This document shows, piece after piece, positions 4,820 through 35,121 of a stretch of 64,000 nucleotides of DNA. A program made the position numbers and the translations under genes. Source of the DNA: a virus. The stretch lies in IMG/VR virus record IMGVR_UViG_3300044801_000208, positions 33,809 through 97,808 of that record; one strand, written 5' to 3'. The stretch's first letter is position 1. Each line of letters starts with the position of its first letter. The notes under the pieces are model-generated. The model worked only from the letters and a program-made list of their open reading frames with translations, was not told where the DNA came from and ran no database searches.

Positions 4820-7741
4820 TTATGACTGCTGCGCCTTGTTCGGCTGCGACATCTTGAACGCCGCTATCTCGGCCAGCGTGTTCAGCTTGGGCGCGATGCC
4901 CTGCGCGGACGTGCCGAACTTCGCGGACTGCGGGAGCGGAGTCAGCGGGTAGGACGGCGGCTTGTTCTGGCTCGCGATCAGGGTCTCCTGGACGGCCGGG
5001 ATCGGCGCGGCGTACCCAGAGACTAATACGTCGACGAGCTGCTGGTCGGCGTTTTGCGCCCCGGCGATGAGGGCAGCGGCGATGGTGTCCTCGGGCTGCG
5101 CGGTGTTGAGGAGGCTCTGGTCGGAGTACACGCCCGGCTGGTCGTACTTCAGCACGATGACCGTGGCGTCGGGCTGGAACGCGGGGTTCTGCTGCTGGCC
5201 GCCCTTCGGGTTGCTGGTGGACGGCGGGATCGCCGTGCTGCTGAGGCCGCCGACCGTGGACTGCAAGGAGGACATGGCGGTGAGGAGCTGGTTGGACGCG
5301 TCGCCGGAGGCGCTGGGCGTGCCGAGCCCGGCGAACAGCAGGGCGTCCGTGCTCTGGAGCACGACCACGTCGTTGAGCGTGAGCGGGGCGTTGGTGCCGA
5401 CCCAGCCAGCCTCCGTGAACTCGTGGATCGCCGCGTTGAGGTTCTGCCACCTGCCCCACGGGAACGGCGCGACGAGCTCGTAGCCCTTGTCGTCCGTGTA
5501 CGGGATGGTCGAGTGCGTGGTCAGGCTGCCGCTCTTGCTCCCTACCAGCTTCTCCATGTACTTGTAGTCCGCCGGGATGAACTGGCCCGCGTTGAAGTAG
5601 CCCTGGTTCGTGCCCGGCGCGATGGTGCCCTGGGCCTGGCTCCCGTCGTTCTTGACCACGTACACGGCCGTCGGCGAGGAGAACGCGTTCTCGTAGGTCT
5701 GCTTGACGACGTTGGATTTGTAGGAGTGAATCTTGACCTGGTCGTTCGACGGGGCGAGCTTCGTGCCGTCCGTGTTCGTGTCCGGGACGGGCAGGGTGGT
5801 CGACGAGCCGACGATGCTGCTGGGGCTCGATCCGCTCTGGCTCACTTGCTGCGGCCCGCCTGCGATGTTGTTGGCGTTGGCCGTGAACACCCCGACGCTG
5901 TTCCCCGGCGACTGGCCCGGGTCGATCGAGGTCGGCTGCTTCGGGTTGTCCGTCCACTGGAGCACGAGGTTCGGGGCGGAGGTGTATGCAGCGTACGACT
6001 TCTGGGTGGTGCCGCCCGTGGACACGGTCTGCCAGGTGTTGACTAGGACCCTGCGGCGCACTGAGTCGCACGTCACCGTCATGGTCGCGGTGCCGCCGAC
6101 CTGGTACTGGATGTTGACGGACTTCACGTACGCGTACATGTCCTTGTGCGGGATGAACACTGGGAACCCGAGCTTGATCTCAGGGCGCAGCGGGATCGTG
6201 ACCGTGTAGGTGCGGTAGCCACGGTTGGCCCTGGCCGTCTCCGCGCAGGCGTGGGCGAACAGGGAAATCTTGTCAAACGGCAGCCACGGCACCATGTAGG
6301 CTGGCTCCTCGCGGAGGCCGAACTTCGCCATTTTAGCGACGTCGGTCCACTCCACGGTCGGCGAGATGTTCGCCGGGTAGTTGATGTTGAGGTCGCGGTC
6401 CTTGTTCCCCGTGAGCGTCGTGCGCGTCCTGCGGATGGCGCTCTGGTCCTCCGTCTCCTGCTCCGTCAGAATCTCCGACAGGTAGATGACGAACGGGTTG
6501 TTGTTCTCGTAAATCTGCGTCAGCGGGTTCGTCAGGCTGTTCGAGCGGGTTCCGCTCGACGGGCTGCTCTGGATCGCGTCCGGCCCGAGGTTCCTGAGCG
6601 TGGACTGCTGGTTGGCCTGCGCCTGCTGGTCCGTGACCACGGGGTCGGAGGTCGTCTGCTGCGAACGCGACCCGAGGTCCGTCACGTCCAGGTTGTAGAG
6701 CGGCGGCTTGATGATGATCTTACCGTCGATGTCCTGGTACCCCTCGAAGTCGATCATGTTCACGACCTGGCGGATCATGTCCAGGCGGTTCACGATGACG
6801 TTGTCTGTGAGGTTCTGCTGGGTGATGGTCTTGAACGGAGCGTACTTCTGGATGTTCTGGTAGTAGGTCTGGTTCGCGTTCTCCTTGACCGACTCCTTCT
6901 GTGCCGTGTGCCTCTGGACGGACGCCGCCTTCGTGTCCTTGCCCGCCTCCTTGTACGCCTTGCTCCTCTGCATCAGCGTCGACTGGCCGAGGTTGTCCTT
7001 GTTCGGGCCGTAGATGTGGACGTCCTTCACCATCTGGAACAGGATCGCCTGCCACTTGGCCATGTAGCCGCGCTGCACGGCGTCAAAGAACGGGTTGCCT
7101 TTTACGAGAGCGTCCTGCTCAAGCGAGGAAAACTGAAAGCCGTCCGACTGGAAACCCTCCGTGAAAATGGCCGCGAGCGTCTCGAAGCAGTCGCAGTTCG
7201 CCAGGATAGACTGCCAGATCGTCAGGTTCGACCCGGTGTTCACGGCAGTGTTCACGGCCGGGTGGATGTTGATCATCATCTTCTCCAGCATGTACATCGC
7301 GCCGTGGCACTGGACGTCGATCTGGAGGGTCTTGCCGTTGTCGTTGTAGCTGATGTGCGAGGTGACGCCCTTGAACACGCGGCGGTAGATCGTGTCGCCC
7401 TGCGAGGACATGTAGTACGCCTTCGCGTAGACCTGTACCTGCGCCATAGTCTGTAGCAGGTTGTTGCCGCCCGGCGTCTGGTACAGGTACTTCTGGAAGT
7501 TCGGCACCTGGAGCCCGATGGAGCAGTTCGGAACGAGCATGTCAGTATCGTACCCTGCGCTGAAGGACGCCACGTGATCGTTGAAGTTGACGAGCGTGTA
7601 CGCCTTCCCGGTGGTCTGGTCGTTCAGGAAGTAGTTAGTCAGGTACGGGAGCCCGTCAATGTAGACGACGACATCGGGTGCCGTCTTGATGATTTCCCTC
7701 TCCTGGCAGGTTTGGGAAATGTTTCTAATCATGCTAGTCAT
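4820..7741 (-). CDS. Putative baseplate hub/tail protein, 973 aa
   Basis: RRVFKGV, FEGYQDIDGKIIIKPP and PLRPEIKLGFPV..YVKSV motifs typical of gp27/hub-like proteins; context. Confidence 0.6.
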   Translation of the reverse strand: MTSMIRNISQTCQEREIIKTAPDVVVYIDGLPYLTNYFLNDQTTGKAYTLVNFNDHVASFSAGYDTDMLVPNCSIGLQVPNFQKYLYQTPGGNNLLQTMAQVQVYAKAYYMSSQGDTIYRRVFKGVTSHISYNDNGKTLQIDVQCHGAMYMLEKMMINIHPAVNTAVNTGSNLTIWQSILANCDCFETLAAIFTEGFQSDGFQFSSLEQDALVKGNPFFDAVQRGYMAKWQAILFQMVKDVHIYGPNKDNLGQSTLMQRSKAYKEAGKDTKAASVQRHTAQKESVKENANQTYYQNIQKYAPFKTITQQNLTDNVIVNRLDMIRQVVNMIDFEGYQDIDGKIIIKPPLYNLDVTDLGSRSQQTTSDPVVTDQQAQANQQSTLRNLGPDAIQSSPSSGTRSNSLTNPLTQIYENNNPFVIYLSEILTEQETEDQSAIRRTRTTLTGNKDRDLNINYPANISPTVEWTDVAKMAKFGLREEPAYMVPWLPFDKISLFAHACAETARANRGYRTYTVTIPLRPEIKLGFPVFIPHKDMYAYVKSVNIQYQVGGTATMTVTCDSVRRRVLVNTWQTVSTGGTTQKSYAAYTSAPNLVLQWTDNPKQPTSIDPGQSPGNSVGVFTANANNIAGGPQQVSQSGSSPSSIVGSSTTLPVPDTNTDGTKLAPSNDQVKIHSYKSNVVKQTYENAFSSPTAVYVVKNDGSQAQGTIAPGTNQGYFNAGQFIPADYKYMEKLVGSKSGSLTTHSTIPYTDDKGYELVAPFPWGRWQNLNAAIHEFTEAGWVGTNAPLTLNDVVVLQSTDALLFAGLGTPSASGDASNQLLTAMSSLQSTVGGLSSTAIPPSTSNPKGGQQQNPAFQPDATVIVLKYDQPGVYSDQSLLNTAQPEDTIAAALIAGAQNADQQLVDVLVSGYAAPIPAVQETLIASQNKPPSYPLTPLPQSAKFGTSAQGIAPKLNTLAEIAAFKMSQPNKAQQS

Positions 7742-14614: not shown

Positions 14615-15124
14615 TCAAACTTTGTGCGGGCAGTTCACACCGGAACTTTTCGCTAGATGGCAATTGGCGCAGAGAATCTGGAACCCAGGCGGAAATCCAT
14701 GACGTATGAGCCATCGGTGAAGGGCGCTTCCGGACCCTTGAGCCTGGCGATGTGTCTTGCCGTCTCCGTTGATGTGGTCCACAGTCAGCCAGACAATTTC
14801 CGTCTCACGGCAACAGGCGCAGAACCCCCCATACTGATCAACTACGATTTTCTTATTCTTAATTCCGTTGTCGCGGGTCTTTTTCCGGGCTTTTTCAGCG
14901 TTGCGCTTATACCACAGCCTTGCTTTCTCTCTGTACGCCTCTGGGTTCTTCGCATAAAACGCCCTGTTCCTGGCGCGGACGCAGGCCTTGCACCAGCCGA
15001 ACGACCCTCCGGTTTTAGCCGTTCCCGATCTTCCTGGAAAGGGGGCTAGGGAGGCGTGGAAACCCCCCTCCGTGAATTCGCCTCCGCACTTCTTGCACTG
15101 TAAGACGGCTATAGGATCATCCAT
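14615..15124 (-). CDS. HNH homing endonuclease
   Basis: CKKC, WCKAC, YGGFCACC, LTVDHING, FQILCANCH. Confidence 0.85.
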   Translation of the reverse strand: MDDPIAVLQCKKCGGEFTEGGFHASLAPFPGRSGTAKTGGSFGWCKACVRARNRAFYAKNPEAYREKARLWYKRNAEKARKKTRDNGIKNKKIVVDQYGGFCACCRETEIVWLTVDHINGDGKTHRQAQGSGSALHRWLIRHGFPPGFQILCANCHLAKSSGVNCPHKV

Positions 15125-15250
15125 ACCTAAGAACGTATAGTCATTTGACAACGTATGAATATCAACCTCGTTTAATACCTGTGTTTTCAACGCCTTGCGG
15201 ATGGACGAAATGGCGGAGTCCGGGGTATACTGTAGGCGGAGGGACACCAA

Positions 15251-17563: not shown

Positions 17564-17566
17564 AGC

Positions 17567-17655
17567 GAACGGCTTTCGGCAGGTACAGGATTCGAACCCG
17601 CGTCTCCGGCTGCCCGGAATCCTAAGCCACTAGACGAACCCCTACTCGCCGTTCT
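17567..17655 (-). ncRNA. tRNA-like RNA with a 4-nt anticodon loop and extended acceptor helix
   Basis: D arm, TCCGG-GCAG-CCGGA, GGTTCGAATCC, closing helix GAACGGC/GCCGTTC; no CCA. Confidence 0.6.
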
Positions 17656-17679
17656 TTGCGTCGTGCACGGACGCAATCT

Positions 17680-18193: not shown

Positions 18194-18268
18194 TGGAGCG
18201 GGTTACCGAAATCGAATCGGTCTCTGTGGCTTGGAGGGCCACGGCACCGCCAGTTATACCTAACCCGC
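18194..18268 (-). tRNA. tRNA-Gly(TCC)
   Basis: GTGGC-CCTCCAA-GCCAC, TCCA; C33 instead of U33. Confidence 0.85.
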
Positions 18269-18754
18269 TAAACGATAAAACTTTCCACACTGACTACTTT
18301 CTCGCGTTTGTTTATTGGTAGCGATCAGCCCCTTGTTCCTGTCCTCCGCTGTCTTTACTGCGTGACAGTTCGCACAACGTACGTCACATTTGGCTATTTC
18401 GTCCAAAACTCGCTGCCGACCTTTAGTCCAACCTTGGGCCAAATTGAACTTCTTTTCCTTTGGATCGCGATGGTCGAAGTGCAGGGCTGCTGCGTATTCC
18501 TTGTACCCACAATCCTTGCACCCCAGTTCCAGCTTTACAGAGTCAATCCATTTTCTGCGAGCGGCATACCGGTAATCTCTTGCACGACGGTTGCAGATAG
18601 TTTTTGTTTCTTTACGCTCTTCCGGCGTTTTTACCTGCGTTGAATCTTTGCAGACCCGTGTACAGAAAAATATTTTGTGCTTACACAGCTTGTACCGCGA
18701 CGGGTATATGTCAAAGTCATTTTTGCAAACCCAACATTGAACCGTTATCATCAC
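18260..18754 (-). CDS. HNH homing endonuclease within the tRNA operon
   Basis: GCKDCG, ALHFDHRDP..K, KCDVRCANCH; the 3' end overlaps tRNA-Gly. Confidence 0.85.
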   Translation of the reverse strand: MMITVQCWVCKNDFDIYPSRYKLCKHKIFFCTRVCKDSTQVKTPEERKETKTICNRRARDYRYAARRKWIDSVKLELGCKDCGYKEYAAALHFDHRDPKEKKFNLAQGWTKGRQRVLDEIAKCDVRCANCHAVKTAEDRNKGLIATNKQTRESSQCGKFYRLAG

Positions 18755-18800
18755 TATTTGCTCCCCCTACTTTGAATACTGTAGAAGGAGCAAATAGTTA

Positions 18801-19162
18801 ATTTACGCGACCTATAAGCGGGGTTCTGTAAGCACCGAAGTGCCCGACAGCCATTCGTCTAATCCACCTATTACTAGGCGGCTCAAGCCCCTAACCCGCA
18901 GATTGATAACGAACCGAGCAAGCTCTCTCTGCCTATTTAGGGTTGCTTCACGCAAGGTTTGCCATGCAACGACTGTTACCAGCCGCCCGGTGGTCTCTTA
19001 AACCGCCTTTTCACCCTTACCGTCTTGCGACGGCGGTATATTCTCTGTGGCACTGTCTATCACGGTTACCCGTGTCCGGGTGTTACCCGGTGCGCTGCTC
19101 TATGTAGCCCCGACTTTCCTCCCCCGTAAAATCACAGCGGCGACTGTCCGGTCAACGTAAAA
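18801..19162 (-). ncRNA. rnpB: RNase P RNA, bacterial type A
   Basis: GAGGAAAGTCGGGGCT (CR-I), AGTGCCACAGAGAA..ACCGCC, AGGGTGAAAAGGCGGT.TAAGAG, GGCAAACC, ACAGAACCCCGCTTA (CR-V); P1 helix TTTACG/CGTAAA. Confidence 0.95.
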
Positions 19163-19164
19163 TT

Positions 19165-19241
19165 TGGAGGTCCGGGGGAGAATCGAACTCCCGCATTTTC
19201 ACGTTTGCAGCGTGACGCCTTACCGTCTTGGCTACCGAACC
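19165..19241 (-). tRNA. tRNA-Cys(GCA)
   Basis: TCACG-CTGCAAA-CGTGA, TCCA. Confidence 0.9.
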
Positions 19242-19246
19242 AAACT

Positions 19247-19356
19247 AATTGGATCAAGTGCTCTACTACTGAGCTACACCCGCCATCTGTCGATAGCCGA
19301 AGCGTGACAGTGGGCGGGAGGGCGGGTACGAGACCGCCGACCTCCTGATCCAAACT
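19247..19356 (-). ncRNA. Circularly permuted tRNA-like RNA (YrlA/Y-RNA-like architecture)
   Basis: Order is anticodon-stem 3' strand, T arm, acceptor stem closed by a TTCG hairpin, D arm, anticodon-stem 5' strand; the ends pair (TTGGATCAGG/CTTGATCCAA). Confidence 0.75.
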
Positions 19357-19430
19357 TGGCGGGGCGTACGGGAGTCGAACCCGTGTGTCTCGGTAGACAG
19401 CCGAGTAAATTGCCGTCATTCTCACGCCCC
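19357..19430 (-). tRNA. tRNA-Asp(GTC)
   Basis: CTCGG-CTGTCTA-CCGAG, GCCA; pyrimidine at position 37. Confidence 0.85.
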
Positions 19431-19504: not shown

Positions 19505-19518
19505 TACACAAAAATTAT

Positions 19519-19590
19519 GCCGCGATGATTAAGGGGCTGATCCCCATCCCGGCGCTCCGAAGAGCCTTCCGGTATCTATCGCCGTCGCGG
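19519..19590 (-). ncRNA. Unclassified three-way-junction RNA
   Basis: CCGCGA/TCGCGG closing helix, CCGG..GCTC-TTCG-GAGC..CCGG, GGGG-ATCAG-CCCC. Confidence 0.5.
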
Positions 19591-19601
19591 ACGACACACT
19601 C

Positions 19602-19671
19602 TGAGCGCTGTATCCACGTCTTAGGTGGGTGTTCTTCACAGACCGCTAAGTCTGGTACTGGACAGCGCTCA
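19602..19671 (-). ncRNA. Unclassified three-way-junction RNA with complementary loops
   Basis: TGAGCGCTGT/ACAGCGCTCA, CAGAC-TTAGCG-GTCTG, CCAC-CTAAGAC-GTGG. Confidence 0.55.
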
Positions 19672-19675
19672 AACT

Positions 19676-19750
19676 TGGTGGACACAGGGAGATTCGAACT
19701 CCATAGTTCTCATTGCAAGTGAGACGCATTCCCAATTATGCTACTGGCCC
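19676..19750 (-). tRNA. tRNA-Ala(TGC)
   Basis: TCTCA-CTTGCAA-TGAGA, ACCA; imperfect acceptor stem. Confidence 0.85.
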
Positions 19751-19762
19751 ACATTCAAAACT

Positions 19763-19838
19763 TGGTGCGCTGGAAGGGACTCGAACCCCCGATGAGTGTC
19801 TTGTAAGGGCACCGCTTTAGCCGCTAAGCTACCCGCGC
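19763..19838 (-). tRNA. tRNA-Val(TAC)
   Basis: Loop CT-TAC-AA, GGTTCGAGTCC, ACCA. Confidence 0.9.
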
Positions 19839-20231
19839 AAATCTCTCTACGTACTCTGCCGCAAGCCTCAATAGGTTCGCTCGGTCGCGAAAATGACCAA
19901 GCCCTAAATTACACCCGCGACACAAAAACCCACGAGCTATATCCGTCTCGTGATTATGATCTAAGTGGGCCTTCCTGAACCCACCCTCGATTATTTCAGT
20001 ACACACGGCGCAATGCCCTTGCTGTCCCGTCCACAAAGTTTGAAGCTCTTCTTCGCTCAAACCTAATCGAGTTCTCTTCCTCTGACTTCGATTTGTGCGT
20101 TCACATCCCGCACAGAACGGGCGGCGTCCGCTCTTCCGGCTGACATCTGGATAAAATTCTCCCAGCTTCAACCATGCTTCACATCTTGGACACCACTTCT
20201 CGTGTTCATTAAACTTTTTGTTTCGTCCCAT
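19824..20231 (-). CDS. Endonuclease VII-family homing endonuclease
   Basis: QQGHCAVC, LDHNHET..ARGFLCRGCNLGLG; the 3' end overlaps tRNA-Val. Confidence 0.85.
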   Translation of the reverse strand: MGRNKKFNEHEKWCPRCEAWLKLGEFYPDVSRKSGRRPFCAGCERTNRSQRKRTRLGLSEEELQTLWTGQQGHCAVCTEIIEGGFRKAHLDHNHETDIARGFLCRGCNLGLGHFRDRANLLRLAAEYVERFARVA

Positions 20232-20252
20232 TCTGGACAATACTCGGAAAAT

Positions 20253-32149: not shown

Positions 32150-35121
32150 AGCTCCTCGTCGAATGAGTTGACGGCCGCCGCCATGGTCCTCTCGCCCACG
32201 GGGGTCTCCACGACCTGGTACTGCTTCGGCTTCTCGGTCATGTAGTTCGTCTCCCGGTTGATGCGGAAGTTCAGCGAGGTGAAGGAGCCGCCCTCCCTGT
32301 CGCGCCCGCGAACGATCATCCCGTCCTCGCCGTCCTTCGTGCGCGTCGCCACGCCCAGGCACAGGTCGAACCGCTGGCCGATCGTGGTGAAGTACTGGAT
32401 GAGGCCGTCGCGCTTCAGGATGGACTCAAGCTCGTCGTCGTAGTTCTCCGCGCCCGCGTTCTTCTCCTGGATGCGCTCTATGTCGCGCCTCGCGTCGGAG
32501 CCGAACTGCGCGGTGACGATCACCATGCAGCCCCGCCCGCCGAACGCGTCGCGGCTGAAGGCGAACAGCCTGTCCACGATCGAGGAGCAGACCTTCCAGT
32601 TGCTCGCGCCGCCCCGGGTCTTCCCGTCCTCGGGCGGCATGATCGTGTCTAGGGGGTCGATGATGATGAAGTCCCACTGGTACTTCATGAAGGTCGCCTC
32701 GGCGTAGGCCATGAGCGCCCCCACCTTGTCCTCGTCGCCCTTCGTCACGGCGTCTATGTTCTGCGGCTCGATGAAGCCCGGCACGATCTCGCCCGCCTTC
32801 AGCTTGAGCAGCAGGCTCTTCATCTTCGCGAGGTCGTCCGCCGTCGCGGTGCGGTTCAGCCCCTCCCACCCGCTGAGGCCGGGGAGCGCCCCGATCTCCA
32901 CGTCGTTCTTGAAGAAGTGGGACAGCTGGAGCGTCAGCCGCTTCATCACCTTCATGCACTGGTGCTCGCCCGCGAAGAACAGGCCGTTCTTGCCTGTGAT
33001 GGCGAAGTTCATGGCCAAGGACAGGGCGGCCGTAGTCTTGCGGTTGCTCGCGGGGCCGCACAGGCAGATGGCGCAGTCGCCGTCCAGCCCGATGTTCATG
33101 CCCGAGTTGTCGATGGTCGGGAAGCCGAGCTTGAACTTCCGCGTGTCCCCGACGCCCAGGACGTTCTTCTCGAAGTCCGCGTAGATGGCGTCCGTGCGCT
33201 CCTGCCACGCGCCCTGTTCGAACCGCGAGTCCTGCGCCGTGCTGGAGTTCCAGTGCTTGCGCATGCCCCTGCGGTAGGCGAGGACGTCCTCCTCCCGGAG
33301 GAGGAAGAAGTTGAACGCCTCGCGGGCCGACCTGATTTCCTGCCTCAGGTCCAGGGTGTGCATGAACGCGTTGGCCGTGTCGTCGAACGTGCTCGCCGGG
33401 GCGTCCTCCAGGGCGTCCACGAACGCCTTGACCTCGTCCTTGTAGTCGTGCTTCCGGACCTCGGGGTCGGGGCTGACGTCGATGAAGTGCTTGAGCGTGA
33501 CCTTGTCGGGCAGCCTCTTGTTCGCCTCCGTGAACTTGATCAGCAGCCGCATCGTCTCCTGCGCGGCCAGCCTGAGCGTCTGCGTCCCGACCTCGCCCCG
33601 CGCGACCTTGATGGCCTTCGCGTTCGGGGCGAAGCCGAGCTTCTCCTTAATGCGCTTCGCGTAGTGGAGGAACCCGTCCTGCCACACCTCCTCGGGGTGG
33701 TGGACGACGACGCGCAGGATGTGGGCGGCCAGGTCGTTCGCCCGTATGTCTAGCCCGTCCAGGGCCTCGCTCCCCGTCTTCCAGGGGTCCTTGCCCGGCT
33801 CAGGCTCGGGCGGCTCCGCCATCGCCTCGTCCTTCTTGGTCTCCTCGACCTTCTCCTGCTCGGCCTCCGCCTCGTCCGCGACCTCGGCGAACTCAAGCAC
33901 GGCCTCGAGCCCGTCGTTCTTGAAGATCGGGTCCGGGTACTCCTCGTACTTCGGCTTGCCGTGCTCGTCGACGGCCTCCCTGAGGAGCTGGAAGATGGTG
34001 CCGATCGTCACGCCCTCGCAGTCGTCCGAGAAGCAATGGTAGCCGAAGGAGTCGCCGACGATGAAGCCCGTCAGGCCGGAGCCGGAGTGCTTGTGCCCCG
34101 CGTTCAGGCAGATGTCCGTGACCTTGACCGTCTTGCCGTTCGCCTCGCGCTCGCCCTCGATGCGGAACGCGCCCTGGCTCTCGTACCACTCAAGCCAGTC
34201 CTCGGGGTCGAAGTTCTCGTCTAGCTCCGGCATGTCGTCGCTGCGGCGGCTGGAGAGCGGCACCTCGCTGCCGAGGGCGAGAATCTGGTCCAGGGCGACG
34301 GCCGAGACGGGGGACTTCGGCGGGATCAGGCGGTTGTGGCGGTAGGGGCGCTCCGGGGCGTCCGTGCCCTTCCTCGTGGTCGTGCCGTAGGCTCGGGTCA
34401 GTCGCGCGGCGTTGAACACGGCGCAGTCGACCTCGGCGGCGGGGCCGTTGAACCTCGCGGCCAGGGCCTTCAGGCAGTCGACGAGCAGGTGGATGTTGTC
34501 CACCGTGTTCATCATCTTGATGGACTGGAGGATGTGGAAGCCGTTGCCCGAGTCGCCGAGTAGCGGCTGCGGCCAGCCTTTCTCCGCCAGGAACGCGAGC
34601 ATCTGCTGGGCCGTGGCCTTGCAGGCGGCCTTCTCCTCGCCCGTGGAGCTCTCGTGCTCGAACCCGGCGGCGCGGAGCGTGTCGCAGTCGATGAACATCC
34701 AGTTCAGGCTGTCAACGTCGTCGTTGCCCGTGAGGTGCTGGGTCGGGCCGGAGAGAATCTGCTCGACCTGCTCGTCGGTCGGGTTGGCCGTGAGGAGGCC
34801 GCTGCCCTTCGAGCATATCTTGCACGCGCACTTCGCCCGCTCCCTCATGAGGCTGGCCTTGCAGGGGTTGATGACGTAGTAGAGGGAGACCACCCTCGGG
34901 TCGCGGTCCAGGCGCTCGACGACCTCGGCCAGGCGGTCGCGGTCGGTGAAGTAGAAGCCGCGCCAGAACCCCTCGGAGTTCTTGATCCTGAACTCGACGA
35001 GCTGCCCCGGCTTGAACAGCAGGCTGACGCCGAGTTTTATGTTTTCCAGCGGCAAAGGCACTCCCCTTGATCGGCGGGACCGCAGCAAAGGGTCTGCGGT
35101 CCCCGCCTCGGACGTTCTCAC
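32146..35121 (-). CDS. Primase-helicase fusion (primase-like N-terminus, DnaB-like C-terminus); start probably GTG near 35061
   Basis: FIDCD, DSGNGFH, R.TRAYGT; LCGPASNRKTT, FAGE, IIIDPLD, VTAQ. Confidence 0.75.
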   Translation of the reverse strand: MRTSEAGTADPLLRSRRSRGVPLPLENIKLGVSLLFKPGQLVEFRIKNSEGFWRGFYFTDRDRLAEVVERLDRDPRVVSLYYVINPCKASLMRERAKCACKICSKGSGLLTANPTDEQVEQILSGPTQHLTGNDDVDSLNWMFIDCDTLRAAGFEHESSTGEEKAACKATAQQMLAFLAEKGWPQPLLGDSGNGFHILQSIKMMNTVDNIHLLVDCLKALAARFNGPAAEVDCAVFNAARLTRAYGTTTRKGTDAPERPYRHNRLIPPKSPVSAVALDQILALGSEVPLSSRRSDDMPELDENFDPEDWLEWYESQGAFRIEGEREANGKTVKVTDICLNAGHKHSGSGLTGFIVGDSFGYHCFSDDCEGVTIGTIFQLLREAVDEHGKPKYEEYPDPIFKNDGLEAVLEFAEVADEAEAEQEKVEETKKDEAMAEPPEPEPGKDPWKTGSEALDGLDIRANDLAAHILRVVVHHPEEVWQDGFLHYAKRIKEKLGFAPNAKAIKVARGEVGTQTLRLAAQETMRLLIKFTEANKRLPDKVTLKHFIDVSPDPEVRKHDYKDEVKAFVDALEDAPASTFDDTANAFMHTLDLRQEIRSAREAFNFFLLREEDVLAYRRGMRKHWNSSTAQDSRFEQGAWQERTDAIYADFEKNVLGVGDTRKFKLGFPTIDNSGMNIGLDGDCAICLCGPASNRKTTAALSLAMNFAITGKNGLFFAGEHQCMKVMKRLTLQLSHFFKNDVEIGALPGLSGWEGLNRTATADDLAKMKSLLLKLKAGEIVPGFIEPQNIDAVTKGDEDKVGALMAYAEATFMKYQWDFIIIDPLDTIMPPEDGKTRGGASNWKVCSSIVDRLFAFSRDAFGGRGCMVIVTAQFGSDARRDIERIQEKNAGAENYDDELESILKRDGLIQYFTTIGQRFDLCLGVATRTKDGEDGMIVRGRDREGGSFTSLNFRINRETNYMTEKPKQYQVVETPVGERTMAAAVNSFDEEL

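Follow-up and report, generated by a model that had tools for sequence, protein, structure and literature searches.

A transfer RNA (tRNA)-like RNA whose 3' half is encoded before its 5' half, and whose acceptor stem is sealed by a hairpin, lies on the minus strand of a 64,000-nucleotide (nt) stretch of viral DNA (positions 33,809 to 97,808 of the IMG/VR virus record IMGVR_UViG_3300044801_000208; the whole of this stretch is termed here the window). This 115-nt element (window positions 19242-19356) is genuine: it is a small-RNA gene conserved within a small clade of large phages from peat and soil. It consists of a circularly permuted tRNA body, in which a hairpin caps the acceptor and a terminal stem of 10 base pairs (bp) replaces the anticodon arm. 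Because its architecture is that of the tRNA-like core of YrlA, a bacterial Y RNA, without the 'handle' through which YrlA binds the protein Ro60 (or Rsr), the element probably acts independently of handle-mediated Ro60 contact. The interpretation favored here, to which we give about an even chance, is that the element is a sealed look-alike of a tRNA body, devoid of the Ro60 handle, that would bind some factor recognizing the acceptor helix and the junction core.

The element occupies the entire gap between the genes for tRNA-Asp(GUC) (19357-19430), which ends 1 nt before it, and tRNA-Cys(GCA) (19165-19241), both also on the minus strand. Its minimum free energy (MFE) and centroid folds are one and the same four-way junction, at -47.3 kcal/mol as against -34.2 +/- 3.5 kcal/mol for 200 dinucleotide shuffles (z = -3.7; 1 of the 200 as good), and its covariance-model matches score 149.7 and 138.6 bits. 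From 5' to 3' (all coordinates being on the minus strand), its parts are: (i) the 5' strand of the closing stem, UUGGAUCAGG (19344-19353), which forms 10 bp with 19249-19258 and the inner 5 bp of which take the place of anticodon-stem pairs 27-31/39-43; (ii) the variable-loop equivalent AGGUC (19339-19343; its last C is C48, the partner of G15; invariant in 8 of 8 variants); (iii) the T-arm equivalent (19321-19338), with a 5-bp stem GGCGG/CCGCC and an 8-nt loop, UCUCGUAC; (iv) the 3' strand of the acceptor stem (tRNA positions 66-72; 19314-19320), containing the conserved U67 of a U6.U67 mismatch; (v) the acceptor cap (19284-19313), made up of N73, YA, the hairpin CUGU(C)ACGC-UUCG-GCUAUCGACAG with its C(UUCG)G tetraloop, AU and G(-1); (vi) the 5' strand of the acceptor stem, GCGGGUG (positions 1-7; 19277-19283), which completes a 7-bp helix stacked directly on the T stem; (vii) U8 and A9, a D arm with a 4-bp stem (GCUC-AGUAGUA-GAGC) and A26 (19259-19276); and (viii) the 3' strand of the closing stem, CUUGAUCCAA (19249-19258), the partner of 19344-19353. 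The order is thus closing stem, AGGUC, T arm, capped acceptor stem, UA, D arm, A and closing stem again.

The fold confirms the permuted order that an initial annotation of this DNA had proposed from the letters alone--that is, T arm, capped acceptor and D arm, with the termini at the place of the anticodon arm--and the sequence it quoted is indeed present there on the minus strand. Its description of the closing stem as short does not hold, the stem measuring 10 bp; its term 'tRNA-elbow mimic' is not supported, inasmuch as neither the T loop nor the D loop is canonical and both are different once more in the most divergent homologue (L267, described below). Specifically, a canonical tRNA elbow is not evident because the T loop has 8 nt and departs from the 7-nt UUCRANY, and because the D loop, AGUAGUA, lacks GG. 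Judged from sequence, the tRNA ancestry of the element is nevertheless plain from GUAGCUCAGU..GAGCA and from AGGUC, and the nucleotides that form the core tertiary pairs of tRNA (U8, A14, R15/Y48 and purine 26) are present. Among the tRNAs of the arrays themselves, the nearest in acceptor and D sequence is tRNA-Gly. (Matches to the motif GNCGAANG, of which the window holds 72 as against 60 expected, are not informative.)

Homologues were obtained by scanning for a D-arm 17-mer (which yielded L100), by means of a two-motif pattern (nine metagenome contigs) and with a covariance model (L267). The eight distinct variants are the window copy, L260, L259, L258, L261, L253, L100 (which is the same in L254-L257) and L267, the most divergent copy, which scores 82.6 bits with the covariance model and resides in a 463-kilobase (kb) record that is 100% complete (G002). 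The diagnostic pattern occurs in only three IMG/VR records, that of the window (G000) included, and nowhere in 185,579 prokaryote genomes, each from a different species; this distribution suggests that the element is restricted to phages. An exact 27-mer scan of IMG/VR returned nothing, and other searches returned only candidates that were rejected: a T-arm pattern matched only coding DNA, by chance; a blastn comparison of this region with GenBank phages gave only tRNA-Cys and ribonuclease P (RNase P) fragments; and a single-sequence model applied to syntenic relatives (L001, L006, L009, L012, L017 and others) gave ordinary tRNA-tRNA junctions.

Comparison of the eight variants, aligned using MAFFT, indicates that the structure itself is maintained. 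Within the stems, 96.5% of cells form standard pairs, as against 30-47% when the partners are slid by 1-3 columns, and both sides have changed at five pairs: four in the closing stem and one, acceptor pair 1:72, which goes from G:C to A:U in three variants. In the closing stem 4 of the 10 pairs are compensated and 98.8% of cells are paired. In none of 500 shuffles was the covariation score, the fraction paired or the count of compensated pairs as high as observed. The RNAalifold consensus arrives independently at the same four helices and adds the pairs Y74:G-1 and A75:U-2, whereby the acceptor helix continues into the cap, with N73 bulged, as a nearly continuous rod. Invariant in all eight variants are U8, A9, A14, G15, C48, A26, the U.U mismatch and four D-stem pairs; moreover, the 25-nt core of the cap hairpin is identical in L260 and L267, the elements of which are 74% identical over their whole length. 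The parts of the element that are conserved are the junction core, the acceptor rod and the rod's cap.

The element is often conserved as well as, or better than, the true tRNA just upstream of it. Identities for the element and for the upstream tRNA are 98% and 64%, respectively, between the window and L259, 90% and 66% between L253 and L100, and 85% and 79% between L261 and L100; for L100 and L267 they are 72% and 79%. In a soil-metagenome contig carrying the L260 variant, tRNA-Asp has seven substitutions, as against a single change in the element, the loss of 1 nt from the cap.

The variants fall into two array contexts: array A, ordered Val-Ala-...-Asp-element-Cys-RNase P (window, L260, L259, L258), and array B, ordered Arg x4-Asn-Gln-Asn-element-...-Lys (L100, L253, L261, L267). 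In all eight the upstream neighbor is either tRNA-Asp(GUC) or tRNA-Asn(GUU), with an A(A/G)UUU spacer between. These are two of the four tRNAs with a GUN anticodon (the queuosine family); the adjacency may be a coincidence, there being only two independent placements. The L258 and L261 elements are 99% identical and the sequence downstream of them is identical, yet the former follows tRNA-Asp and the latter tRNA-Asn; hence the cassette has moved, or has been converted, between arrays. Near-identical elements thus adjoin tRNAs that are only 64% identical; this mosaic exchange of array cassettes may be driven by HNH/endonuclease VII genes, which in the window lie on the minus strand within or at the edges of the RNA array (14615-15250, 18260-18754 and 19824-20240). 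The nearest syntenic arrays lack the element: L001 and L017 have about 5 nt between Asp and Cys. In the two nearest of these arrays (L009, 214-426; L012, ~6104-6316) the Asp-Cys slot holds an open reading frame (ORF) of 70 codons matching DUF4031 (47.3 bits).

Such mobility raises the question of whether the element might be a functionless remnant, formed from the 3' half and the 5' half of adjacent tRNA genes and carried along by recombination or gene conversion. Tandem tRNAs naturally give the same order of parts, and both the YrlA model and the element's own model weakly match tRNA-tRNA junctions; near-identical copies beside diverged neighbors, together with the HNH/endonuclease VII genes, suggest recent transfer; and L267 folds poorly. 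A remnant, however, would not account for compensatory changes in two helices, nor for an ordered cap hairpin in place of CCA plus spacer, nor for a closing stem that exceeds an anticodon stem by 5 bp. UCCAA and UUGGA cannot both stem from a single 7-nt loop, so one ancestral anticodon loop cannot have supplied these additional pairs. The architecture is, in addition, kept in eight variants, in two contexts and in phages the flanking tRNAs of which are just 48-66% identical. The initial annotation had named absence of covariation among homologues as the mark of a chance juxtaposition of two broken tRNAs; homologues exist and they covary, and a remnant of this kind is accordingly judged quite improbable.

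Several observations nonetheless weigh against a conserved, functional look-alike. The family is narrow, most variants being 83-99% identical; given the homing-endonuclease genes in the array, a recent spread through recombination could account for much of the conservation. The pair changes on both sides are carried by L267, L100 and L253 only. The single-sequence fold of L267 is poor (z = -0.3) and its T arm weak: the T stem has 4 bp, the T loop has 9 nt and is unrelated, and the D loop is AGGGA; this copy might be decaying. (L100, too, has a bulged A and a G.U in its T stem.) Because the T and D loops are non-canonical and are not kept in L267, classical elbow readers may fail to recognize the RNA. 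Finally, the lone metatranscriptome run (X6, as contigs) covers only the RNase P RNA, although missing cover over the element proves nothing.

The element is not a tRNA that takes part in decoding. It cannot decode because it has no anticodon loop--a 5-bp anticodon stem with a 7-nt loop is absent, the termini forming a 10-bp helix instead--and charging is precluded by a 3' end that is sealed and lacks CCA. Across the variants positions 73-75 are N-Y-A rather than NCCA and are paired into the cap; aminoacylation was considered in view of the CCA and the His-like G-1:C73 pair of the window copy, and was rejected since neither is conserved in other variants. By comparison, the genuine tRNAs read in the arrays all have an encoded CCA. 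ARAGORN makes no tRNA call for the element, and the Rfam tRNA model gives only a partial match of 15.3 bits.

The permuted order does recall the circularly permuted tRNA genes of red and green algae and of Thermofilum, the transcripts of which are cut at a bulge-helix-bulge (BHB) motif, circularized and relieved of their linker to give a decoding tRNA. As in those genes, the 3' half is encoded first and a linker lies between the acceptor strands; unlike them, the element lacks an anticodon loop, a BHB motif and CCA. That it might be a true permuted tRNA gene of the Cyanidioschyzon or Thermofilum type, passing through a circular intermediate to a decoding tRNA, is suggested by the order of the halves and by its tRNA-derived sequence (U8 A9, the D arm, AGGUC and the 7-bp acceptor). 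The joined termini, however, would form a 10-bp stem with a loop of about 10 nt rather than a 5-bp stem with a 7-nt anticodon loop; leader and trailer make up one continuous helix without the 3-nt bulges of a BHB motif; CCA and the discriminator are unconserved, and neither ARAGORN nor the Rfam tRNA model makes a call; and RtcB is absent from the three records that carry the element (G000-G002). This origin is thus regarded as extremely improbable.

Among other known RNAs, the two-piece transfer-messenger RNA (tmRNA) of alpha-proteobacteria and cyanobacteria, an alanine-accepting RNA with pseudoknots and a tag reading frame, likewise contains a permuted tRNA-like domain with the acceptor 3' strand upstream of the 5' strand. 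The element, unlike such a tmRNA, has just 115 nt, and ARAGORN found no tmRNA; a fragment match of 7-9 bits to the tmRNA model nearby was all that spoke for this identity, which was therefore rejected. The tRNA cluster of phage T4 encodes the stable RNAs C and D (species 1 and 2), which are not tRNAs and which are co-transcribed and processed with tRNAs. The element resembles these in being a non-tRNA RNA of a phage tRNA cluster; the T4 RNAs are not known to be permuted.

The only RNAs described as having a permuted, acceptor-capped topology are the Rsr-bound YrlA Y RNAs (PMC4201824). YrlA (RF02553), a Y RNA of bacterial and mycobacteriophage Ro60/Rsr, carries the tRNA modifications Psi55 and D. 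In it a tRNA-like module, the role of which is still open, is set upon a Ro60-binding helix with the motif GNCGAAN(0-1)G; the RNA is described from 254 bacteria and 22 phages, its gene being on the same strand as that for Ro60 and no more than about 4 kb away (PMC4201824). Some jumbo phages carry TROVE proteins, the cellular partner of which is tRNA-like (PMC7824862). The Rfam consensus of YrlA, aligned with the element, gives the same tRNA-derived layout of closing stem, V region, T arm, capped acceptor-like stem, UA and D arm, so that the likeness to YrlA drawn by the initial annotation is borne out. Several features set the element apart: it has neither the outer Ro60-binding helix nor the GNCGAAN(0-1)G motif; its cap is a bulged hairpin, long and conserved, where YrlA has a short loop; neither its T loop nor its D loop is canonical; and it occupies a slot of a tRNA operon, with no Ro60 gene adjoining. 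There is no CGAA within the element, and the positions of the YrlA model that correspond to the handle fall on the 3' end of tRNA-Asp; indeed, there is no room for a handle because tRNAs abut both ends, in keeping with the earlier remark that no Rsr-binding helix could be seen.

Scored with the Rfam YrlA model, which that annotation had put forward as a check, the element reaches 17.6 bits (E = 0.17 in a 151-nt search), far from the gathering threshold of 69, and in a 3.6-kb Rfam search with this model it is not listed. Control genomes also give sub-threshold YrlA matches; weak matches to model positions 29-81 in the window and its relatives turned out to be tandem tRNA junctions, as did a full-length 19.7-bit match in G001.

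The distribution of Ro60 itself was determined among the related records. No TROVE domain was found in the 97.8-kb record of the window (G000, ~31% complete), in G001 (30% complete) or in G002 (100% complete, 463 kb), all of which carry the element; the last also lacks DUF2828 and RtcB. Conversely, G003 (the record of L009; 54% complete) encodes a 476-amino-acid TROVE + vWA_Ro60 protein (127158-127928; L263, 844-2274) and G005 (the record of L007; 100% complete) a TROVE protein (1373-2251), and neither has the element. Both are RNase P-encoding phages, and both have a YrlA-like RNA below the Rfam threshold: in G003 it is part of a tRNA array at a distance of 48 kb from the Ro60 gene (79027-79139; L268, 1482-1594; 45.1 bits), where the element's model also detects it at 27.8 bits, and in G005 it is of the classical kind and lies directly upstream of the TROVE gene (801-927; 28.3 bits). 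Ro60/Y RNA systems thus exist in this phage group, but wherever the data are informative the element and Ro60 are not found together. The absence of an rsr gene noted in the initial annotation is upheld for the whole record, but carries little weight, the record being ~31% complete and two relatives encoding Ro60. The Ro60 protein of G003, used as a query, gave an uninformative negative, since the TROVE protein of G005 was missed as well. G003 shares with G000 a 9-kb syntenic block (50-84% amino-acid identity); colinearity ends 13 kb before the Ro60 gene, and synteny therefore permits no inference about Ro60 in the window's phage. DUF2828 (PF11443) is absent from G000-G004 according to a weak search that matched no control genome, and the ACAGCAA/CNGCAA-type motif is absent from the RNA array and shows no enrichment (8 matches as against 5.8 expected, the nearest at 20019 in an endonuclease VII gene). 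With regard to RNA repair, RNA_ligase (PF09414) genes occur in G000 (C1:22029-22361, outside the window), in G002 (119714-120127 and 405434-406066) and in G003 (100942-101481 and 136845-137243); one of the two in G003 is some 9 kb away from its Ro60 gene, a hint of an RNA-repair module.

These data bear on whether the element is, after all, a functional Y RNA, that is, a partner of a phage or host Ro60 (TROVE + vWA) that is contacted in a non-classical manner, perhaps through the bulged acceptor rod and cap. Such a partnership draws on the fact that the topology is described only for Rsr-bound YrlA, phages included (PMC4201824), and on the Ro60 genes of G003 (TROVE + vWA_Ro60) and G005 (TROVE). 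That the only YrlA-like RNA of G003 is borne in an array, remote from Ro60, makes array-borne partners plausible; the detection of that RNA by the element's model, the incompleteness of the window record and the striking conservation of the cap core point the same way. Set against this are the want of GNCGAAN(0-1)G, of an outer bulged helix and of any room for one, the YrlA score (17.6 versus 69 bits) and the anti-correlated presence of the two genes among these records, the complete G002 having the element without TROVE or DUF2828 and G003 and G005 having TROVE without the element; the synteny with G003, stopping short of Ro60, says nothing either way for the window's phage. On balance a Y RNA function appears unlikely, and a look-alike lacking the handle remains the favored interpretation.

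How the RNA might be released is suggested by the operon in which it resides. The source record is ~31% complete by CheckV, which implies a phage genome of about 300 kb; the same DNA occurs in public peat metagenome runs, and a close variant in a soil metagenome. According to ARAGORN and Rfam, the co-oriented minus-strand array comprises 12 tRNA genes and a gene for type A RNase P RNA (18800-19159, minus strand; 268.9 bits, E = 1e-86), the latter in the same operon as the element and about 90 nt downstream of it. Both neighbors of the element are called by ARAGORN; tRNA-Asp, which has an encoded CCA, scores 46.9 bits and tRNA-Cys 62.5 bits on the Rfam tRNA model. A sigma-factor gene lies upstream of the array. 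No sigma-70-like promoter occurs on the minus strand within the array, and no promoter- or terminator-like site on that strand near the element; the sole minus-strand terminator-like site (17127-17107) lies past the last tRNA. This arrangement fits a single operon.

More broadly, the core motif of the RNase P RNA is common to 14 IMG/VR records, in 9 of which tRNA arrays adjoin it. A soil metatranscriptome contig matches 18883-19161 with five letters different and one gap, and contains a head-to-tail joint from 19161 back to 18800; the RNase P RNA of a close relative was therefore present in an RNA library with these ends, either as a circle or as a tandem.

Release by processing of the flanking tRNAs may be proposed because the element occupies a tRNA slot of this co-oriented tRNA/RNase P RNA operon. 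From established tRNA processing, 3' maturation of the upstream tRNA would set the 5' end of the element, and cleavage by RNase P at the 5' end of tRNA-Cys would set its 3' end. The released RNA would be about 105-115 nt long, and, with its ends locked in the 10-bp helix and its acceptor capped, would give exonucleases few points of attack. As a tRNA look-alike that is stable and resists nucleases, it would most likely bind a factor that reads the acceptor helix and the junction core, either as a decoy or as a scaffold.

RNase P might, alternatively, act upon the element itself: a phage or host enzyme would cut at the 5' side of the acceptor, producing a two-piece tRNA-like RNA that receives CCA. 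The precedent is the YrlA of Mycobacterium smegmatis, the sole YrlA with a 7-bp acceptor, which M1 RNA cuts in vitro and which is cut and CCA-tailed in vivo (PMC4201824). The element's 7-bp acceptor on a 5-bp T stem is the main determinant for RNase P, and the phage's own RNase P RNA gene is close by, about 90 nt downstream. Against such a precursor, positions -1 and -2 pair with 74 and 75, leaving neither a single-stranded leader nor a free 3' tail; RCCA is unconserved (73-75 being N-Y-A); the cap is among the best-conserved parts of distant copies, which is unexpected of a spacer to be discarded; the T loop, a part read by the specificity domain of RNase P, departs from the canonical form; and array B has no RNase P gene nearby. 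A role as an RNase P precursor is accordingly considered very unlikely.

A more specific version of the look-alike interpretation is that the element is a stand-alone phage effector RNA, neither cleavable nor chargeable, that would soak up or misdirect a host factor recognizing the acceptor/junction core; candidate targets are a tRNA-targeting defense nuclease and a tRNA-processing enzyme. Its position right after tRNA-Asp or tRNA-Asn in 8 of 8 variants fits this idea, these representing two array placements only, and array B is rich in isoacceptors (Arg, Asn, Lys) of the kind attacked by anticodon nucleases. The proposal is a doubtful one at present. If true, the effector RNA would represent a class of phage counter-defense RNA distinct from Ro60/Y RNA particles.

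The arrays hold other RNAs of unusual form. A structured RNA lies between tRNA-Ala and the next tRNA in the window (19505-19679, minus strand), in L012 (5541-5635) and in L006 (3606-3703); the three copies share GUGCCGxCxxGGACGGC.GAUAGCAGCCGGAGxxUUCGxxCUACGG...AGCAUC, with stems that by eye appear compensatory, and Rfam gives no match to it. At 17564-17679 (minus strand) the window encodes a tRNA-shaped RNA with its strands in native order, which scores 24.3 bits on the tRNA model at 17577-17642 and has no normal anticodon loop; GCCGAAAG is flanked by its outer helix, GAACGGC/GCCGUUC. Folded as a single sequence it is unremarkable (z = -0.8), and it may represent a second type of tRNA mimic in the operon. 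Soon after the element, array B has a tRNA-like gene (L267, 1618-1685; L100, 2776-2846) which in L267 scores 57 bits on the tRNA model and for which ARAGORN's 'anticodon' is only 2 nt, and which would therefore have an anticodon arm of reduced length; its appearance is that of a mimic of native topology that has no anticodon.

The present analysis describes an RNA that is under structural selection and that is found within the tRNA operon of large soil phages encoding their own RNase P RNA. No paper on a handle-less permuted tRNA mimic in phage tRNA operons was found in the literature. In bacteria and phages, permuted, acceptor-sealed tRNA mimics have been known only as the module of YrlA; here that module occurs alone, without the handle. 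Should the element prove to be a partner of Ro60 after all, it would define a second, handle-free mode of Ro60-RNA pairing. If, on the other hand, it is independent of Ro60, then the tRNA-like body would itself be functional--in binding, as a decoy or in protection--and could be tested in isolation, which would bear both on the role of the tRNA-like domain of Y RNAs and on the ways in which phages handle the tRNA biology of their hosts.

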